Assembly (NCBI GenBank): GCA_951812335.1
Contig: OX638293.1
Span: 1,358,529-1,422,528, forward strand
Length of the DNA: 64,000 nucleotides
Reading direction: 5' to 3'
Source of the DNA: Rhodothermales bacterium
GTDB lineage: Bacteria > Bacteroidota > Rhodothermia > Rhodothermales > VXPQ01
Made by a program: the position numbers and the translations under genes. Shown piece after piece: positions 27,285-35,900 of this stretch. Below the pieces are notes generated by a model. It had not been told where the DNA came from, ran no database searches, and saw nothing but the letters and a program-made list of their open reading frames with translations. Positions within the stretch are counted from its first letter, which is position 1; each line of letters begins with the position of its first letter.

Positions 27285-28178
27285 TTACGCGCCGGCTTGT
27301 TTGCCCACTTCGATGCCCGATAGTCGCTCGAGCGCTTTCACAAGGGCATGGTTGCCCTCGCTCCCAAGGCCGTTGCGCTGGAGCGAACGGTACAGGTGAA
27401 AACATGCGCCCGCGCCAACGAGCGGTACCCCCAGTTCGTCCGCGGCGTCGAGGACGAGGCGCAGATCTTTCAGTTGCAGGTCGATCGTGAACCCCGGGCG
27501 CCAATCCCTTTGCGTGCATTGCGGGCCCCTGTTGGCGAGCATCCAGCTGCCTGCCGCACCGCCGGTTACCGCCTCTAATGTTTTTTCGAGGTCCAGTCCA
27601 CCGGCCTCGGCGAACGTGAGCGCCTCCGATACGGCAAGCATGTTCACGACGACCAGTATCTGGTTGACCAGCTTGACGGTTTGGCCGGCCCCGTGCCCGC
27701 CGACATGCGTAATCGTCGTGCCCATGGCTTCGAAACAGGGCATGGCCCGCGCCACTTGATCCTCCTCGCCTCCGATCATAATGCTGAGCGTGCCGTTTGC
27801 GGCTCCTTCGCTGCCTCCGCTGATGGGGGCGTCCAGCATATGCATATTCCGGGCCCCCAGTTGCGCCGCCAGTGTTTTTGTTACGGACGGGCTGATCGTG
27901 CTCGTGTCGATGAAGAGGGCGCCGGGCCGCGCTGACGGGATTGCTTCTTCGATGACGGCGACTACATCCGGGGTGTCGCTAACGCACAGAATAACGATCG
28001 TGCAATGCTCAGCCAATGCACGAATCGACGAAGCTACCCGGGCCCCGGCTTTCTCAAGAGGTTTCGTTCCGGAGGCGGTACGATTCCAGACGGTCAGGTC
28101 GACGCCGTGCCTGACGAGGTTGTGCGCCATGCCCCGACCCATTACGCCAAGGCCGATGAATCCGACAGGTTCGTTCAT
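27285..28178 (-). CDS. NAD(P)-dependent beta-hydroxyacid dehydrogenase (GarR/GlxR/MmsB family)
   Basis: GFIGLGVMG, DAPISGG, GAGQTVKLVNQ, LQLKDL. Confidence 0.9.
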   Translation of the reverse strand: MNEPVGFIGLGVMGRGMAHNLVRHGVDLTVWNRTASGTKPLEKAGARVASSIRALAEHCTIVILCVSDTPDVVAVIEEAIPSARPGALFIDTSTISPSVTKTLAAQLGARNMHMLDAPISGGSEGAANGTLSIMIGGEEDQVARAMPCFEAMGTTITHVGGHGAGQTVKLVNQILVVVNMLAVSEALTFAEAGGLDLEKTLEAVTGGAAGSWMLANRGPQCTQRDWRPGFTIDLQLKDLRLVLDAADELGVPLVGAGACFHLYRSLQRNGLGSEGNHALVKALERLSGIEVGKQAGA

Positions 28179-28900
28179 GGATATTTTTCTTCTGCTGCTT
28201 CGAGTTGCACCCGAGTGCGATGTACGCGCGCGCGGGATGCTGCCCGACCGATTTTTGCATTTGCCACCACTTCCTGGCCAGCGAGAGCGATCAGGCGCTG
28301 CACGGCGTCCTCGGTCCGTTCTTCCTTGAGTAATTCCAGCACATCGCTATCGACAATAGCGTACCAGATACCCTTTCTTACGTCGAAATCCGGATATCGG
28401 ATGGACATCGGTTTGCGCATGGCCGCCATCCAATCGAGAAATGTCTCGTAATGGGTCCCGAATTCCGTTTCCAGGCGTTGACGCAGCCGCACGGAGAGCG
28501 CCGGCGCTGCGCCGCTGGTGGAAATGGACAAGGCCAGTTTGCCGCGCCGTACGACCGATCCGGCCACGAACGTGCAATGGGGGATGTCGTCCATGGCGTT
28601 TATCAATACGTTTTTCTGCTGCGCTTCTTCCCAGATAGGTCTCGTTTGCGAAGGATTGGTCTCGCAGACGATGACGAGGAAAGCGCCATCGAGGTCACCG
28701 CAGCGGTATGCCCGAGGAATCCATTCGACCCGGTCCTGTGCGGCGAGCCTTTTCGAAAAAGAGGGGCTGACCACTTTTATGTGGGCGCCGCACGCCAGAA
28801 GTTCCTGGACCTTGCGTTCGGTTTCTCCGTCGTGCCCTCCTCCGAAGACGACGCATTGTCTTCGCCCAAGGTCGCTAAGCCATACCGGGTACATGTTCAT
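28175..28900 (-). CDS. Precorrin-2 dehydrogenase / sirohydrochlorin ferrochelatase (CysG N-terminal / SirC-like)
   Basis: MYPVWL..CVVFGGG, INAMDDIPHCTF, ISTSGAAPALS; ATGA overlap with cysH. Confidence 0.85.
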   Translation of the reverse strand: MNMYPVWLSDLGRRQCVVFGGGHDGETERKVQELLACGAHIKVVSPSFSKRLAAQDRVEWIPRAYRCGDLDGAFLVIVCETNPSQTRPIWEEAQQKNVLINAMDDIPHCTFVAGSVVRRGKLALSISTSGAAPALSVRLRQRLETEFGTHYETFLDWMAAMRKPMSIRYPDFDVRKGIWYAIVDSDVLELLKEERTEDAVQRLIALAGQEVVANAKIGRAASRARVHRTRVQLEAAEEKYP

Positions 28901-29619
28901 CGGCCGCCGAGCGTTTTTTCCTCGATGCCATACGAATGAATTCCGCATTCCATTTTCTCGTGCTCCTGCCAGCGGCCCGAACGAATATTCTGGCCATTCT
29001 TGACAGGTTTTGTGCAGGGAATGCAACCGATACTCGGGTAGCCCCAGTCATGCATTGGGTTGTAGGGCAGTTCGTGCAGGGTTATGTATTGTCGGACATC
29101 CCGGTCTGTCCAGGATGCCATTGGATTGATCTTGACAAGATTATGGATGGGCTCCCATTCCACGACCGCAGTATTTCTACGCGTGGGGGATTGGTCGCGC
29201 CGGACAGCAGTGACCCAGGCGTCTTTCGAGGCCAGAAATTGCCTGAGCGGTTGCACCTTGCGAAGAAAACAGCAACGATCCGGATTGATTCGCCATAGAT
29301 TGTCGCCTTCCCGGGCCGCCTGATCTCGCAGGGATAGTTCCGAATGAAGACGAAGAATTTTAATTCCCAAGCGCTTTTCGAGCTGGATTTTCAGGTCGTA
29401 TGCTTCGGGGAAGAGCAGGTCCGTGTCCAGATAGAATACGATAGCGGTTGGCCGGACGCGCGAAAGTATATGCATCAACGCCACGCCGGACAGGCCGAAG
29501 CCGGTACCCGTGGCCACGTTCGAACCAAAGGTTTCGAAGGTCCATGCGAGTACGTCTTCCGGCCAGGCATGCTCCAACCGCATGTTCGCTTCACGGATTT
29601 CGTTTTGTGTCAAAATCAT
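28897..29619 (-). CDS. cysH: APS/PAPS reductase with Fe-S ligands (APS reductase type)
   Basis: LDTDLLFPE, CC-xx-RK, YPSIGCIPCT, RSGRW, ECGIH. Confidence 0.9.
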   Translation of the reverse strand: MILTQNEIREANMRLEHAWPEDVLAWTFETFGSNVATGTGFGLSGVALMHILSRVRPTAIVFYLDTDLLFPEAYDLKIQLEKRLGIKILRLHSELSLRDQAAREGDNLWRINPDRCCFLRKVQPLRQFLASKDAWVTAVRRDQSPTRRNTAVVEWEPIHNLVKINPMASWTDRDVRQYITLHELPYNPMHDWGYPSIGCIPCTKPVKNGQNIRSGRWQEHEKMECGIHSYGIEEKTLGGR

Positions 29620-30434
29620 AATACGGAAGCAGTTGGGGGTTGATTGTGAACGAACGAATCATGCAATGCTCCACCTGAAAATACGAGTTCTTTGTTAAAC
29701 CATGTTGTTCGGGAATGAAGCGATACCACTTCGCCTATAACGATGGTTGCGGGTGCGGAGCATCCGAGACTTAGCAGACCGATGGTCCTGAGCGTTCCGG
29801 ACACAGTTCTCTGGTTTTGGGTTGCAGCGGATTCGACGATTGCGGCCGGAGTTTCAGGATCGAGCCCTGCCCCGATCAATTGTCCGGCAATCCAGTCGAG
29901 GCGGCCAAGGCCCATCAAAATGACCAGGGTACCCACGCGCGCCAGCGCATTCCAGTCCGGTGAACGGCTGGCCGTGCACGAATGACCCGTTACGACAGTG
30001 AATGCGGGGGATATGTTGCGGTGCGTGACGGGAATACCGCTGAAAGCTGGTGCAGCGATCGCGCTCGAAACGCCGGGGATCACCTGAAACGGGATGTTCG
30101 CCTCGGCAAGTGCAAGGCATTCTTCGCCGCCGCGTCCAAATACGAAAGGATCGCCTCCTTTCAGGCGAACCACGCTTCGGTATCGCCGAGCCCGGTCGAT
30201 GAGTATACGATTAATCGCTTCCTGGGGCATGGAATGCTCCCCGGGTGCTTTTCCGGCATAGATGCGTTCGGCGTCCATGCGGATGCAATCCAGAAGATCG
30301 GGATGGACGAGTCTGTCGAATACCACTACCTCCGCATGGCGGAGAAGGCGGAGCCCGCCTGCGGTGATTAAATCAGGATCTCCGGGTCCCGCGCCTACAA
30401 GATAGACGGTTCCATGTTCAGGTCGGTTGTGCAT
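29616..30434 (-). CDS. cobA: Uroporphyrinogen-III C-methyltransferase
   Basis: VYLVGAGPGDPDLIT, VRLKGGDPFVFGRGGEE. Confidence 0.92.
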   Translation of the reverse strand: MHNRPEHGTVYLVGAGPGDPDLITAGGLRLLRHAEVVVFDRLVHPDLLDCIRMDAERIYAGKAPGEHSMPQEAINRILIDRARRYRSVVRLKGGDPFVFGRGGEECLALAEANIPFQVIPGVSSAIAAPAFSGIPVTHRNISPAFTVVTGHSCTASRSPDWNALARVGTLVILMGLGRLDWIAGQLIGAGLDPETPAAIVESAATQNQRTVSGTLRTIGLLSLGCSAPATIVIGEVVSLHSRTTWFNKELVFSGGALHDSFVHNQPPTASVL

Positions 30435-32289
30435 GGTTTCGATATTTTTCGGCGATCCGGTCAAGTTCTTCGTTTCCGATTCGTGCGCAGTAGTTGCCGA
30501 ATTGCTCTCCGGCCTGCTTTTCTTTTAGAAACGCATACAAAACAGGGCGGAGTACGGGGACAATCTCGTCGAGCGGCACAAGGTCTTTGAAAAGTTTGTT
30601 CAGGCGTGTACCGTCGGATCGCCCTCCGAGGAACAGTGCGTATCGATCGCGAGATCGCCCCACAAGTCCGATATCGGCTACGTAAGGGCGGGCGCACCCG
30701 TTGGGGCAACCGGTCATGCGGATCGACAGGAGTTCGTCCTGCAAGCCCAGCTTTTCCAGTTCTTTCTCGACGAGGTCGATCACCCTGGGCAGGACCCGCT
30801 CGGACTCGCTCAGCGCAAGACCGCAGGTCGGCAGCGCCGGACAGGCCATGGAATATTTCCGGGCATTCGACAGTTTGGCAGGGCGGACAATACCGTACTT
30901 GTCGAGCAGATCGTTCAATTCCGTGCGTACGGCTCCGTCCAGGTCGGTGAGCAGGATGTCATGATTGGGGGTGAGTCGTACTCCGGGTCGAAACCGCTCG
31001 ACAATCGCTTTCAATCCTGATTTGAGCCGGATCCTGTCCGTATCCATGATGCGCCCGTTTTCTACGGAAAGGCCGAAAAACCAGCGTCCGTTCAGTTGTT
31101 TTCGCCAGCCAAGGTACAGATTGTTCTCCAGCGGTCCGGTGTTCCGCGGCGGTTCGAGAGAATAGCCAAGCCGCCTTTCCAATTCGCGAACGAACCGGTC
31201 GAGTCCCCAATCGTCGATCAGATATTTCATGCGGGCATGACGTCGGTTCGTTCGATCTCCATGATCTCGCTGTATCGTAACGATGGCGCTTGCGACCTCG
31301 ATCAGTTTCGAGGTGGGCACGAAACCGACCGGGCTTCCCAGACGAGGGTACGTTTGCGGCTTCTTGTGGGTCATACCCAGTCCGCCCCCGGCGAGCAGGT
31401 TAAATCCGGCGAGCGTTTCGTTTTCGACGATGGCGATAAGACCCACATCCTGCGTATAAACATCGATGCTATTGTCGCCGGGATAGGCTGCGCCTATTTT
31501 AAATTTTCGCGGCAGATACGCTTGGCCGTACAGCGGCTCTTCGTTTGTTATTTCCCGGCGATCGTTCACGGGGCGTTCCCGGATCGTTTCGGAGAGGCTG
31601 TTATACACTTTATCGCCTTCGAGCCACACTTCGTGATAGGCGCGCGTCCGGGGTAGCAAAGCTTCCGCCAAGCGATTTACTTCGAGTTCGATCGCTTCGT
31701 GCACGGGATGGGTGGCCGGGGCGGGCGACAACATCGTATTTCGCACTACATCGCCGCATGCGGCGAGGGTTGTCAGCAGGATATCGTTGATCGCGCGCAG
31801 CGTACCCTTCAGATTTGTCTTGATTACGCCGTGCAACTGAATTCCCTGGCGGGTTGTGATGCGAAGCGTTCCGTTGCCATAGCGATCGGCAAGCATATCG
31901 TGCACCAGATACTGGTCTGCCGTGAGGCGCCCGGAAGGGATTCGCGAACGCACCATGAACATATATTGCTTGCCCCCCTTTTTATTGTCCCGATCTCGTT
32001 GCTGGTAGATTCCGTGGAATTTCAGGAGCTGTTTTCCCGTTTCGTCGAAGTGTTCGGCGGAATCGCGGAGGTTTTCCAGCAGGTTTCCGCGCAGGTTCCG
32101 TCCGGCGGTTTTTATATGCTCCAACCCCAACGACCGCGGCGCCCTGACCTGATCCCCTGAATCCGGACCGCCTTTTCTCTTGTCGGGCAACAGGGAGGAC
32201 TTTTTCTGCCCGCCTCCTTGCGCGTCGGTTTGTTGCGGGATCGGGGTCGGAAGGACAGGTTTTCCTGTTTTTATTTTTTTGGAAGACAT
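30418..32289 (-). CDS. cysI: Assimilatory sulfite reductase hemoprotein (siroheme, 4Fe-4S)
   Basis: LKFHGIYQQ, TTRQGIQLHG, ACGDVVRN, YLPRKFK, ACPALPTCGLA, MTGCPNGCARPY. Confidence 0.9.
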   Translation of the reverse strand: MSSKKIKTGKPVLPTPIPQQTDAQGGGQKKSSLLPDKRKGGPDSGDQVRAPRSLGLEHIKTAGRNLRGNLLENLRDSAEHFDETGKQLLKFHGIYQQRDRDNKKGGKQYMFMVRSRIPSGRLTADQYLVHDMLADRYGNGTLRITTRQGIQLHGVIKTNLKGTLRAINDILLTTLAACGDVVRNTMLSPAPATHPVHEAIELEVNRLAEALLPRTRAYHEVWLEGDKVYNSLSETIRERPVNDRREITNEEPLYGQAYLPRKFKIGAAYPGDNSIDVYTQDVGLIAIVENETLAGFNLLAGGGLGMTHKKPQTYPRLGSPVGFVPTSKLIEVASAIVTIQRDHGDRTNRRHARMKYLIDDWGLDRFVRELERRLGYSLEPPRNTGPLENNLYLGWRKQLNGRWFFGLSVENGRIMDTDRIRLKSGLKAIVERFRPGVRLTPNHDILLTDLDGAVRTELNDLLDKYGIVRPAKLSNARKYSMACPALPTCGLALSESERVLPRVIDLVEKELEKLGLQDELLSIRMTGCPNGCARPYVADIGLVGRSRDRYALFLGGRSDGTRLNKLFKDLVPLDEIVPVLRPVLYAFLKEKQAGEQFGNYCARIGNEELDRIAEKYRNHAQPT

Positions 32290-32347
32290 ATATCAAGGGG
32301 TGTGGGTATAAACACTCGAAGCGTGCGAGAAGCCGAAAAACGGTCAC

Positions 32348-32382
32348 AAAAAAACCCGCTTACCTTTGAGGGGAAGCGGGTT
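32348..32382 (-). terminator. Intrinsic terminator in the leader of the cys operon
   Basis: Minus strand AACCCGCTT-CCCCTCAAAGGT-AAGCGGGTT with U7 tract, about 60 nt upstream of the cysI start. Confidence 0.8.
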
Positions 32383-32444
32383 GGTATCTTGGGCGACCGT
32401 CAAGTGCGCGCATCGACTGCGCATTCTCAGGTAGTACAGGATCG

Positions 32445-32528
32445 TCAGGTTTGTCCTGATCCCTCCAGAGGTTTCGTAGTGCGGGTCATGCCCTGCATAC
32501 ACATACATAAAGATATACGCATTAGCAT
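32445..32528 (-). CDS. Putative Met/Cys-rich leader peptide MLMRISLCMCMQGMTRTTKPLEGSGQT
   Basis: 5 Met + 2 Cys in the first 14 codons; lies directly upstream of terminator and sulfur assimilation operon. Confidence 0.55.
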   Translation of the reverse strand: MLMRISLCMCMQGMTRTTKPLEGSGQT

Positions 32529-32905
32529 ATTCACCGGCAGGCGATCCTTGTACGCACAGGGCGCAAAGGAGGTAGAAGGATCCGCCGTATGAATGAAACC
32601 ATGCATGGGCACGGGAACGCGTATGGTTTTGGTTGTACTGCGCCGGGCTCGGGAATTCAAGTCGTTGAATAAGCGCCCTTGCACAAGTAAGGCGCAATTA
32701 TACTGCACGGAATGTTGTAAGGCAAATTTTTTTTATACAGGAAGCGCTTTCATTCCTGTTGTAATAGATTAAAGCGAAAAAAATTTTTGTTTTCACGAAA
32801 ATTGCAAAAAAGGATGCGCCCTCCGGGGCCATCCGGTTCGGATGCGGACCCCCTCGGACCGCATTATGAGCGCCGTCTTTAGCCACTCCATCGCTCATAA
32901 ACGGC

Positions 32906-32941
32906 AAGGGTCCCCGCCGCCGTACGGCAACGGGAACCCTT
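32906..32941 (-). terminator. 16-bp stem-loop downstream of the giant adhesin gene
   Basis: AAGGGUUCCCGUUGCC-GUAC-GGCGGCGGGGACCCUU pairs fully only on the minus strand (three G-U pairs); U-tract weak. Confidence 0.6.
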
Positions 32942-32981
32942 TGTTGAGCATAAGCCGAGAGACAACTTCGGCTGCCGTTTT

Positions 32982-35900
32982 TTACTTGACAAGAACCATC
33001 GTGCGCACGATCGTCTTCTCGCCCGCCGCCAGGCGATACACGTAGACGCCGTTCGGCAAGTCGTTCGCACCGAAACGCACCGTGTGACGACCTGCCGTCT
33101 TCGGACCGTCGACGAGCACCTCCACCTCGCGCCCCAGCATGTCGTATACGATCAGGCTCACGTCGCCCGCCTGCGGCAAAGCGTAGTCTATGGTCGTCTG
33201 CGGGTTGAACGGGTTCGGGTAGTTCCGAGAGAGTTCAACCTCCGTCGGCAGTTCCTCGTCTTCCGTGCCGGTAACCGAAATCACGTCGACCGTAAAGGTC
33301 TGCGAAACCTCCTCCTTCTCGCGATCAGTCGCCGTAAGCGTGACCTGGGCCGAGTTGTGCCCGAGCGGCAAGATCGTCAGCGTGGCCTCGGATGGATCCA
33401 GCGTCAACTCCATGGCCGAGGTGATCACATAGGTCGCGGTGCTCGACGGCGATATGTGATCGGCCGACACATCCATCTCGTAGAGCAACCCTCCGGGAAG
33501 CGCGTCGCCCGCTCTCGCATTCGGATCCAGGAAAGCGGGATCGGCCTCTTTTCCGCCCGACAGATTCCGCAAATCCAGAACCGTCGCAGGATCGCCCGTA
33601 TTCAGCGTAATATCCTCGATGACGGTCCGCACGACCGGGAACGTGGCGCCGTGGACCGTCACGTCGAAGCTTTGCGAGATGGCTTCTTCGCTGGCGTTCG
33701 TGGCCACCACCGTAACGTCGGTAGATGCCTCGTCCGTACGCCACACGGGCGTAAGCGTTATGACGGAGCCCTGCACGGCTACCTCCACCACGGTGCTGTC
33801 CGCACTGCTCGCCGTATACGTGAGGCCGCTCATCGCAGGATCTCCAAACGCAGCCGGCTCGCCGTCTTCGTCGCCGTTCAAATCCGCCAGATCCACCGTT
33901 GCGGCGTCGCCGTCGGCATCCAGTTCCTGGTCAGGAATAGCCTGCGCTACGGCCGGCGTAGTCTCGCTCACGATCGTCACCGTGAAGGAATCCGATATGG
34001 ATTGGGCGTCCGGATACCCCGCTTTGGCGATCTCGTCCGGTTCGCCGTCCTTCGTACAGTCAGAGGTTGCCGTTACAGGATTGTCGTTTGTCGCATACCC
34101 GGCAGGACAGACGTACGTCGGCTCTCCCTTGTCCGTGGCGGTCACCGTAAAGGTGCTCGTGCCCGATCCACGCGGAAGGATAGTGAGGGTCTCCGCAGCC
34201 AGATCGACCGCCGCCCTCATGGACGACGTAACCCACGTAAAGCGGTCGCCGTCGCCCACTTTTATGGCCGTATCGTCATCGATGTCGATCGTCAACTCCA
34301 GCGAACGCCCGCCCAGGTCGTCATCCGCGAATCCGTCGCCCAGATCGCCGATCGTGGTGTCCGTATCGTCGTCTTCCCGCAATGTCCAATCCGCAAGCGG
34401 CGCTACGACATACGGTCCGGTTGTCCCGGACACGGCCACAACAACTTGCAACCGGGCATATTCGCCGGCGCCGTCCGTCGCAGTCACCCAAACGTTGGTC
34501 GATTCGCCACCTTGCGCCTGGTCCGTAAGTGCGATCGTCAGCTTGGAACCCGATACCGTCGCCGTTACGATATCGACCGCATCGTCGCCTGCGCCCACTT
34601 TATCGGCGCTGGCTTCGTAGGTCAGGGAGACATGGTTCGGATCGTAGAAGTAATCGCGAAGCTCCAGTGTCTTCGACATTTTCTCTACCTCTCTTGTCGT
34701 CAGCATTACCGGATCCGTATAGCTCTGGACTTGATCATTGTACTCTTCTCCCACGGCAATATCCTCTCCTATCAGCACGGGCGCATCGGCGGACATCACT
34801 TCCACAAGCATGAGCTTCTCGTCGTCCTCTGCGCTCGCATCCGGATCCACAGCGAGTTCGAATGCGCCTACCGAAATCGGATCCAAGGTGAGCTCATTGC
34901 CGGTAAGGACGACGTTGGCGTACGAATCGACCGTAAACGAATGGCCGGGATTGTTCACCGGGTCGTCGTCCCCCACGCGGTAGTGACGTATACTCCAGTC
35001 TGCCCCCAAATCGTAAGGATACTCTTTATCCAGGTCAATGGTAACGGGCCCTCCGCCCACGCGGAGAATCCTGGATCGAACCGCCGGCACGGCGACAATG
35101 CAGATGTTATCGCTGTCGCCTGAGAATTCCACGAGATCGCCAAGCCATTCCTGGAATGCGGTATCTCCCGGCACGCACAGCCCGTTGTCGACATCCAAGT
35201 GCGTGAGATTGCTCAAGTTGCTAAGCGCCGCCGGGATCGATCCCGTCAGGTCGTTGTTGTGGAGCCACAGTCTCTGGAGGTTGGTCAAGTAGCCCAACTC
35301 CGCCGGGATCGAGCCCGTCAGGGAGTTATCCTCGAGACGCAGTCTCTCGAGGTTGGTCAGTTTGCCCAACTCCGCCGGGATCGGCCCCGTCAGGTCGTTG
35401 CTGTGGAGATCCAGGTGCGTGAGGTTGGTCAAGTCGCCCAACGCCGCCGGGATCGAACCCGTCAGGGAGTTATCCTCGATACGCAGTCTCTCGAGGTTGG
35501 TCAGTTTGCCCAACTCCGCCGGGATCGAACCCGACAGGGAGTTGAGCCTGAGAATCAGATATTTTAGGCTGGTCAAGTCGCCCAGATCCGCCGGGATCGA
35601 ACCCGACAGGGAGTTTTCGTGGAGATACAGTTCTTCAAGGTTGGTCAAGTCGCCCAGATCCGCTGGGATCGAACCCGTCAGTCTGTTGTCTTGGAGATCC
35701 AGTATCTCGAGATTGGTCAAGTCGCCCAGCATCGCCGGGATCGCCCCCTCCAGGGAGTTTTCATGGAGGCTCAGAGAATCCACCCGTCCGGCGTCGTCGG
35801 TGGAGACGCCGAACCACGTATCGAGGGCGGCGTTAGTGCCCCAGTTGTCACTTCTTTCCCAATCGCCCCCGTTGGTCGAATCGTAGAGCGCAAGCAGCAC

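Follow-up and report, generated by a model that had tools for sequence, protein, structure and literature searches.

The approximately 400 nt that precede cysI on the minus strand of the 64,000-nt stretch of Rhodothermales DNA analysed here (hereafter called the window) very likely contain an attenuator of some kind, as judged from the sequence and its conservation. We favour, with slightly better than even confidence, a leader-peptide transcription attenuator of the cysI operon that would include Met sensing. This leader would read the charging level of Cys-tRNA, and probably also that of Met-tRNA. An original prediction had proposed that a ribosome-read short ORF with sulfur amino acid codons, followed by a terminator, controls cysI-cobA-cysH-sirC. 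This core reading is supported by the order-wide conservation of the layout, by the fixed spacing between the stop codon and the terminator, by the lack of Rfam elements in the window and by a conserved promoter-like site. All elements of that prediction were found in place when the minus strand was reread (Table 1).

Along the minus strand, the promoter-like site is followed by the leader, cysI and the downstream sulfur genes. A consensus scan of positions 32000-33100 revealed a single promoter-like site (32725-32697), located 5' of the leader ORF, and both of its hexamer positions are kept in the six aligned sequences of the clade, i.e. the window and five relatives. The scan found none in the 58-nt gap between the terminator and cysI. 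The gene adjoining the leader on its 5' side (39044-32982, minus strand) codes for an unrelated protein of 2020 residues, which combines approximately ten PKD-like repeats with leucine-rich repeats and carries a C-terminal sorting domain for type IX secretion.

Table 1. Features of the cysI leader and operon in the window
Feature	Coordinates	Strand	Description
Promoter-like site	32697..32725	-	Sigma-70 type, 17-nt spacer, 10 of 12 consensus positions; prediction
Long leader ORF	32445..32606	-	53 codons + stop; first in-frame ATG kept in 6/6 clade members
Short leader ORF of the original prediction	32445..32528	-	ATG at 32528, 27 codons, TGA at 32447-32445
Putative regulatory codons, Cys-Met-Cys-Met	32496..32507	-	6-nt Cys-Met unit, two copies in the window
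Candidate antiterminator, 5' strand	32460..32471	-	Leader codons 20-23; pairs with 32374-32362
Hairpin over the leader stop	32439..32462	-	Spans TGA 32447-32445
Structured spacer ('M domain')	32386..32442	-	From stop to terminator; includes the small GC hairpin
Intrinsic terminator	32348..32382	-	Hairpin 32382-32353, 12-nt loop, seven T (32354-32348)
cysI	32289-30418	-	Pfam NIR_SIR + NIR_SIR_ferr, E 7.5e-51
Uroporphyrinogen-III methyltransferase (cobA)	30464-29616	-	Pfam TP_methylase
PAPS/APS reductase (cysH)	29619-28897	-	Pfam PAPS_reduct
Siroheme synthase-like gene (sirC)	29026-28175	-	Pfam NAD_binding_7 + CysG_dimeriser
Dehydrogenase gene	28178-27285	-	Pfam NAD_binding_2; 4-nt overlap with the siroheme synthase-like gene
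Putatively controlled operon cysI-cobA-cysH-sirC	28175..32289	-	ORFs + Pfam

The reading frame of the leader

The Cys/Met-rich character ascribed to the short ORF was confirmed. Its first 14 codons, counted from the ATG at 32528, comprise five Met and two Cys codons, hence seven sulfur-containing residues, including the Cys-Met-Cys-Met series at 32507-32496, and a further Met codon is present at 32489-32487. The Cys-Met unit of 6 nt is found in two, three or four copies among close relatives, and the third position of the Cys codon varies synonymously among relatives.

The choice of 32528 as the start codon did not withstand comparison with the relatives, as this ATG is specific to the window and is replaced by ACG in the other five of the six aligned clade sequences. 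Two in-frame ATGs, at 32522 and 32606, are each conserved in all six. No Shine-Dalgarno-like sequence was seen by eye before either of these candidate starts. The frame is open upstream to 32708, and its in-frame openness amounts to 87-95 codons. In the six-sequence alignment, the indels between 32606 and the stop codon (3, 12, 6 and 6-18 nt) are all multiples of three, and those located 3' of the leader stop are of 1, 1, 2, 1, 1 and 6 nt. This pattern weakly favours a frame read from 32606, which would comprise 53 codons; the case is weak because only two in-phase indels lie upstream of 32522. A codon-position test on the clade alignment revealed no excess of third-position substitutions anywhere in the frame, and therefore this test cannot settle which start codon is used. 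The lack of such an excess would be expected for a leader peptide whose sequence is unimportant, and it argues against a functional small protein. Searches of Pfam and NCBIfam with the translations of the leader ORF yielded no match. The window also lacks a 12-nt segment at about 32531 (between 32532 and 32530) that is present in the other five clade members, in which it completes an 8-bp hairpin just 5' of the conserved ATG at 32522.

Leader types upstream of cysI

We used CysI as a query in three collections, namely 41 relatives, 285 genomes of the order and a wider set of genomes and metagenomes. In the search among the 41 relatives, all 15 loci first examined harbour a Cys- or Cys/Met-rich frame followed by a terminator and cysI. 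Of 17 Rhodothermales leaders scanned, 15 contain a GC-rich hairpin and an adjoining T run, the remaining two being of the riboswitch type described below. At an E value of 1e-100 or better, this cysI is present in 26 of the 285 Rhodothermales genomes. By our own tally, which relies on visual inspection for the terminators of L193 and L194, 17 of these 26 genomes have the ORF followed by a terminator, eight have a leader of the SAM-I type and one has different contexts devoid of such a leader. This recurrence shows that the arrangement is not due to chance. Within the genus of the window, cysI is missing from four of 11 other species. Together with its presence in 26 of 285 genomes, these absences indicate that assimilatory sulfite reduction is patchy in the order.

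The stop codon is separated from the terminator by 60-63 nt in the six clade members and by 30-38 nt in nine other lineages. A stop at such a fixed position relative to the terminator is difficult to account for if the frame is not read. Conservation across the order extends to the Cys-rich frame, the position of its stop and the terminator, but not to the peptide outside of the Cys/Met codons.

A search of the whole window with the Rfam covariance models yielded no family at gathering score, and a permissive scan of 32150-33050 gave only noise (E>0.2), in line with the original prediction that neither a SAM riboswitch nor a T-box consensus is evident. In eight other Rhodothermales genomes (loci L191, L192 (=L033), L195, L196, L197, L198, L199 and L200 (=L037)), the SAM-I model (RF00162) scores 67-92 bits 5' of cysI. 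In these riboswitch-type loci, the SAM-I element with its own terminator is followed by a short ORF, which is clearly Cys-rich in seven of the eight, then by about 150-250 nt and cysI; no second terminator was seen between the short ORF and cysI. It is unusual for a riboswitch to precede a codon-based sensor. Since SAM-I and a Cys-rich ORF both precede cysI in these sister lineages, both the methionine branch and cysteine would be sensed there. The genome of the window has a single SAM-I riboswitch (C1:1635377-1635530, i.e. L203:1501-1654; 75.5 bits), with a terminator, and the gene behind it codes for a PLP enzyme of Cys/Met metabolism of the O-acetylhomoserine sulfhydrylase kind (metY-like). 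With such an enzyme, sulfide would be a direct source not only of cysteine but also of methionine.

We also looked for comparable leaders farther away. Among the 152 wider cysI loci from genomes and metagenomes with enough upstream sequence, a density of at least five Cys per 12 residues is reached in 19 loci on the sense strand versus two on the antisense strand. At least four Cys per 12 residues are found in 32 loci; in 18 of these, a terminator-like site closely follows the stop, and several of them are labelled as Anaerolineae or other Chloroflexota. Short polycysteine ORFs, in many cases interspersed with Met and followed by a terminator-like hairpin, were observed 5' of cysI in ten loci (L044, L047, L049, L050, L057, L069, L074, L159, L173 and L183), on contigs labelled as Anaerolineae or other Chloroflexota or on unlabelled metagenome contigs. 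Given the Chloroflexota-labelled examples, the design is not confined to Rhodothermota. No such leader was found at the five Balneolaceae cysI loci (L034, L035, L036, L039 and L042).

Within the genome itself, a genome-wide scan retrieved seven Cys/Met-rich frames with a terminator behind them, and the cysI leader is the only one among them that looks genuine. The cysD/cysN genes and a cysK-like gene, located elsewhere in the genome, have no such leader and no Rfam hit, and a Pfam search for ATP sulfurylase gave no match. Upstream of cysD/cysN, within a region of roughly 480 nt, lies a direct repeat (about 137143-137232 in the genome; L207:1377-1466) made of two 40-nt copies that are 80% alike, 50 nt apart and identical over their last 20 nt, which may be a binding site for a regulator. 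Another Cys-rich frame, a 27-codon ORF with twelve Cys, is located outside of the window at 1892096-1892179 (plus strand) of contig C1. No terminator follows it and no sulfur gene is found nearby; it may code for a small metal-binding peptide.

Terminator, candidate antiterminator and codons putatively read

The original prediction had placed a strong U-tailed terminator before cysI, and this element is conserved in the clade. Its 8-bp stem (32381-32374 with 32361-32354) is worth about -15 kcal/mol in the window, with values from -15 to -19 kcal/mol across the six clade members, and its T run ends 58 nt before cysI. RNAalifold applied to the six leaders gives a terminator of 12 pairs, including one compensatory stem pair, with C-G changed to U-A in two of six sequences. 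The small GC hairpin that had been noticed upstream of the terminator was found at about 32422-32405. The hairpin over the leader stop, also part of the original prediction, is present in the window, but its inner part is not kept in the relatives, in which only the outer 4 bp remain.

The same spacer helices were obtained in three RNAalifold runs, with compensatory changes at one pair (GC in three sequences, AU in two, GU in one). The 5' strand of the spacer starts 3 nt past the stop codon, at a place that would be occupied by a ribosome terminating translation. The consensus fold also contains a hairpin between the Cys/Met codons and the region around 32522. Two other pairings were considered and discarded. 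A long-range helix (32553-32542 with 32444-32434) of the single-sequence fold is absent from the six-sequence consensus. A conserved six-base leader motif identical to the start of the terminator 5' arm was considered as a rival partner of the 3' arm; it was rejected, since in the consensus fold it is engaged in local pairs, and the long-range match is not shared by L007 and L008.

The original prediction had further proposed that the last leader codons pair with the 5' side of the terminator. Folding recovers this pairing, both in the window and in the six-sequence alignment, when the transcript is truncated before the terminator 3' arm; in the truncated alignment it forms an 8-bp helix (32467-32460 with 32374-32367) that closes the spacer domain and occupies the loop of the terminator as well as the upper part of its stem. 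The same helix is obtained when the window is folded with a mask that mimics a stalled ribosome. As read from the aligned sequences, the strand 32471-32460 has 10 of its 12 positions paired in the window and all 12, including one G-U, in L004 and L005. However, no compensatory change affects the helix in the six-sequence alignment, in which the window carries an A.C mismatch, and the energy of the duplex between the leader and the terminator 5' side is better than in dinucleotide shuffles only for L004 and L015 (p 0.02 each), not for the other 13 of 15 leaders, including that of the window (z +0.37). The terminator 5' arm is more paired under the stalled-ribosome mask than under the stop-codon mask in 14 of 15 leaders, a trend subject to a transcript-length bias. 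The exception is the window itself, in whose stalled-ribosome fold the 5' arm proper is unpaired (paired probability of 0.03-0.17). In the more distant leaders L009, L013 and L015, a near-copy of the terminator 3' arm is found in the distal part of the ORF and can pair with the 5' arm. This would be the textbook arrangement, with weak statistics there too. The metagenome scan with CysI yielded just two close relatives (L111 and L113), too few for covariation of the antiterminator to be testable from them.

From the helix obtained in the truncated and masked folds, we propose a mechanism based on the position of the ribosome. Transcription would start at the promoter-like site near 32697, and we infer that a ribosome translates the leader ORF from 32606 or 32522. 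At high charging levels of Cys-tRNA, and probably of Met-tRNA, the ribosome would reach the stop codon at 32447, where it would cover the 3' end of the putative antiterminator strand and the beginning of the spacer with its 5' strand. This would allow the terminator hairpin (32382-32353) to form, and RNA polymerase would stop at the T run. At low charging levels, the ribosome would stall on the alternating Cys/Met codons (32507-32496) and leave both the spacer and the putative antiterminator strand free. The spacer would fold, and codons 20-23 would engage the terminator through its upper stem and loop and prevent it from closing, so that transcription would continue into cysI.

Whether Met codons are sensed in addition to Cys codons was addressed by the composition of the leaders. 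In 13 terminator-type leaders, each counted to its stop from a point three codons ahead of the first Cys in the Cys-rich stretch, Met represents 40 of the 305 non-Cys residues (13.1%), compared with 1.9% in the long ORFs of the genome, the p-values of this test being overstated since the ORF picker gave Met half weight and the lineages are related. In the same leaders, Met is the most common residue in the middle of Cys-x-Cys triplets (16 of 36). In the eight riboswitch-type leaders, Met represents 14 of 154 residues, start codons included, and none of seven Cys-x-Cys middles. As Met codons are thus also found in riboswitch-type leaders, the contrast by which they would replace the riboswitch is not clean. 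The leaders prefer the rarer Cys codon, with a TGT:TGC ratio of 56:31 versus 1740:4473 genome-wide, and that of the window has just two Cys codons. Mixed Cys and Met sensing, as originally predicted, is favoured by the strong Met enrichment and by the presence of SAM-I at the same place in sister lineages. A SAM-I element before the metY-like gene and a SAM sensor at cysI in sister lineages fit dual sensing. We tentatively suggest, as a possibility that we hold with rather low confidence, that a two-input ribosomal Cys/Met sensor is interchangeable in Rhodothermales with a tandem of SAM-I and a Cys-codon ORF at cysI. If so, Met codons and the SAM aptamer replaced one another in evolution as the input from the methionine branch.

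The same attenuator might read cysteine only, a reading that we regard as somewhat unlikely. The Met codons would then be by-products of hexamer slippage, elements of RNA pairing or spare start codons, and indeed a Cys-Met hexamer that is prone to slippage and pairs with the start region could explain them without sensing. The variation of the hexamer from two to four copies among near-identical relatives and the pairing of the Cys/Met codons with the region around the 32522 start in the consensus fold are consistent with this explanation, as are the pure Cys runs of other lineages, such as five in a row in L009, the pure polycysteine leaders of mycobacteria described in the available text of 10.1101/834739, and the Met codons of the riboswitch-type leaders. 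Arguing for Met sensing instead, Met is about sevenfold more abundant than in the proteome over 13 leaders of several families, not just those with hexamer repeats, it is the commonest residue between Cys codons, and the sister SAM sensor at the same locus shows selection for a methionine-branch input to cysI.

Two further explanations dispense with reading of the ORF as the regulatory event. It appears improbable that the ORF is incidental and that regulation lies with an undescribed riboswitch, or with an antitermination site bound by a protein, in the spacer (32442-32386) or elsewhere in the leader. Such an element would account for the identity of 21 nt around the stop codon and of much of the spacer in all six clade sequences, for the compensatory spacer pair and for the fold of the whole leader, which is better than all 200 shuffles (z -3.95). 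Nevertheless, the spacer is limited to the clade of the window, whereas nine lineages keep the ORF and the terminator 30-38 nt apart, conservation across the order bears on the Cys-rich frame, its stop position and the terminator, and no Rfam family matches. Very improbable in our opinion is an independent gene for a small Cys-rich protein with its own terminator, cysI being separately promoted, or else a chance ORF. The frame is indeed open over 87-95 codons, and another small Cys-rich ORF exists elsewhere in the genome. Yet the 58-nt gap that separates the terminator from cysI yielded no promoter-like site, the variable columns do not cluster at third positions and give no sign of protein-level constraint, and the translations match no family. 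Moreover, the peptide is not conserved across the order outside of the Cys/Met codons, and a same-strand ORF is found 5' of cysI in 17 genomes. The leader-peptide attenuator with putative Cys and Met reading remains our favoured interpretation.

Comparison with known regulatory leaders

Leader-peptide attenuators of the classical type control the trp, his, leu, thr and ilv operons of Proteobacteria, and in the thr and ilv cases one leader reads more than one amino acid. Like those of the trpL/hisL type, the cysI leader has a short ORF enriched in codons for the end products of the pathway, an intrinsic terminator between this ORF and the first structural gene and, according to the folding models, a candidate alternative pairing that would depend on the position of the ribosome.

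If the proposed reading holds true, the attenuation logic of trp and his extends to sulfur amino acids and to Rhodothermota. Sulfate reduction is an expensive process, and the sulfide that it yields is used for cysteine as well as methionine. The occurrence of codon-based and SAM-riboswitch leaders at the same gene in sister families represents a natural experiment on the exchange of RNA sensors. These short ORFs are unannotated and could enter genome annotation, and the similar design found 5' of cysI in Chloroflexota contigs suggests that they may form a widespread, overlooked class.

The classical attenuators of amino acid operons are summarized in the available parts of 10.1101/834739 and PMC4007540. 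According to the former (Canestrari et al.), polycysteine leaderless ORFs control translation in mycobacteria by unmasking a ribosome-binding site, and its authors state in that text that upstream-ORF attenuation for cysteine was, to their knowledge, undescribed. Candidate Cys leader peptides devoid of intrinsic terminators are reported for Actinobacteria in the accessible portion of Seliverstov et al. 2005 (PMC1262725). For Deinococcus deserti, a predicted leader of ten codons, two of them Cys, precedes cysS, and transcription attenuation was proposed, as given in the available part of PMC4007540. The accessible portions of PMC2965389 and PMC13236596 contain nothing on whether such Cys leaders are known. 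Our full-text searches, which covered the openly accessible literature, returned no terminator-type Cys or Cys/Met leader; within the same scope, Cys leaders were found for Actinobacteria and Deinococcus only, and none for Rhodothermota or Chloroflexota.

In the mycobacterial and actinobacterial leaders, as far as the accessible texts describe them, the ribosome likewise reads cysteine through Cys codons of an upstream ORF in sulfur assimilation operons. Those ORFs are leaderless, their Cys codons follow one another at the 3' end, where those of mycobacteria pair with the ribosome-binding site of the next gene, and no terminator is present. In the window, there are two non-adjacent Cys codons, Cys and Met alternate at a distance of 16 codons from the stop, and a canonical terminator is located downstream; the ORF is predicted not to be leaderless, as the -10 element ends at 32697 and the conserved ATGs are at 32606 and 32522. 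The D. deserti cysS leader resembles the one described here as a Cys-codon leader peptide, both being predictions, but in the available description it is leaderless, lacks Met codons and lies 5' of a gene for a tRNA synthetase. The SAM-I (S-box, RF00162) leaders share with it the terminator-based control of sulfur amino acid genes and the position at orthologous cysI genes. The cysI leader of the window has no SAM aptamer, and its signal would be tRNA charging read by the ribosome.

The differences from the classical attenuators lie in the specificity for Cys, and probably Met, in the phylum, Rhodothermota, in a possibly long leader ORF (53 codons) with no visible Shine-Dalgarno sequence, and in a candidate antiterminator that reaches over a 57-nt structured spacer and engages the terminator by its upper stem and loop rather than by the whole 5' arm. 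Altogether, the cysI leader would represent classical attenuation with a new amino acid specificity and an unusual antiterminator geometry, an interpretation supported by comparative genomics.
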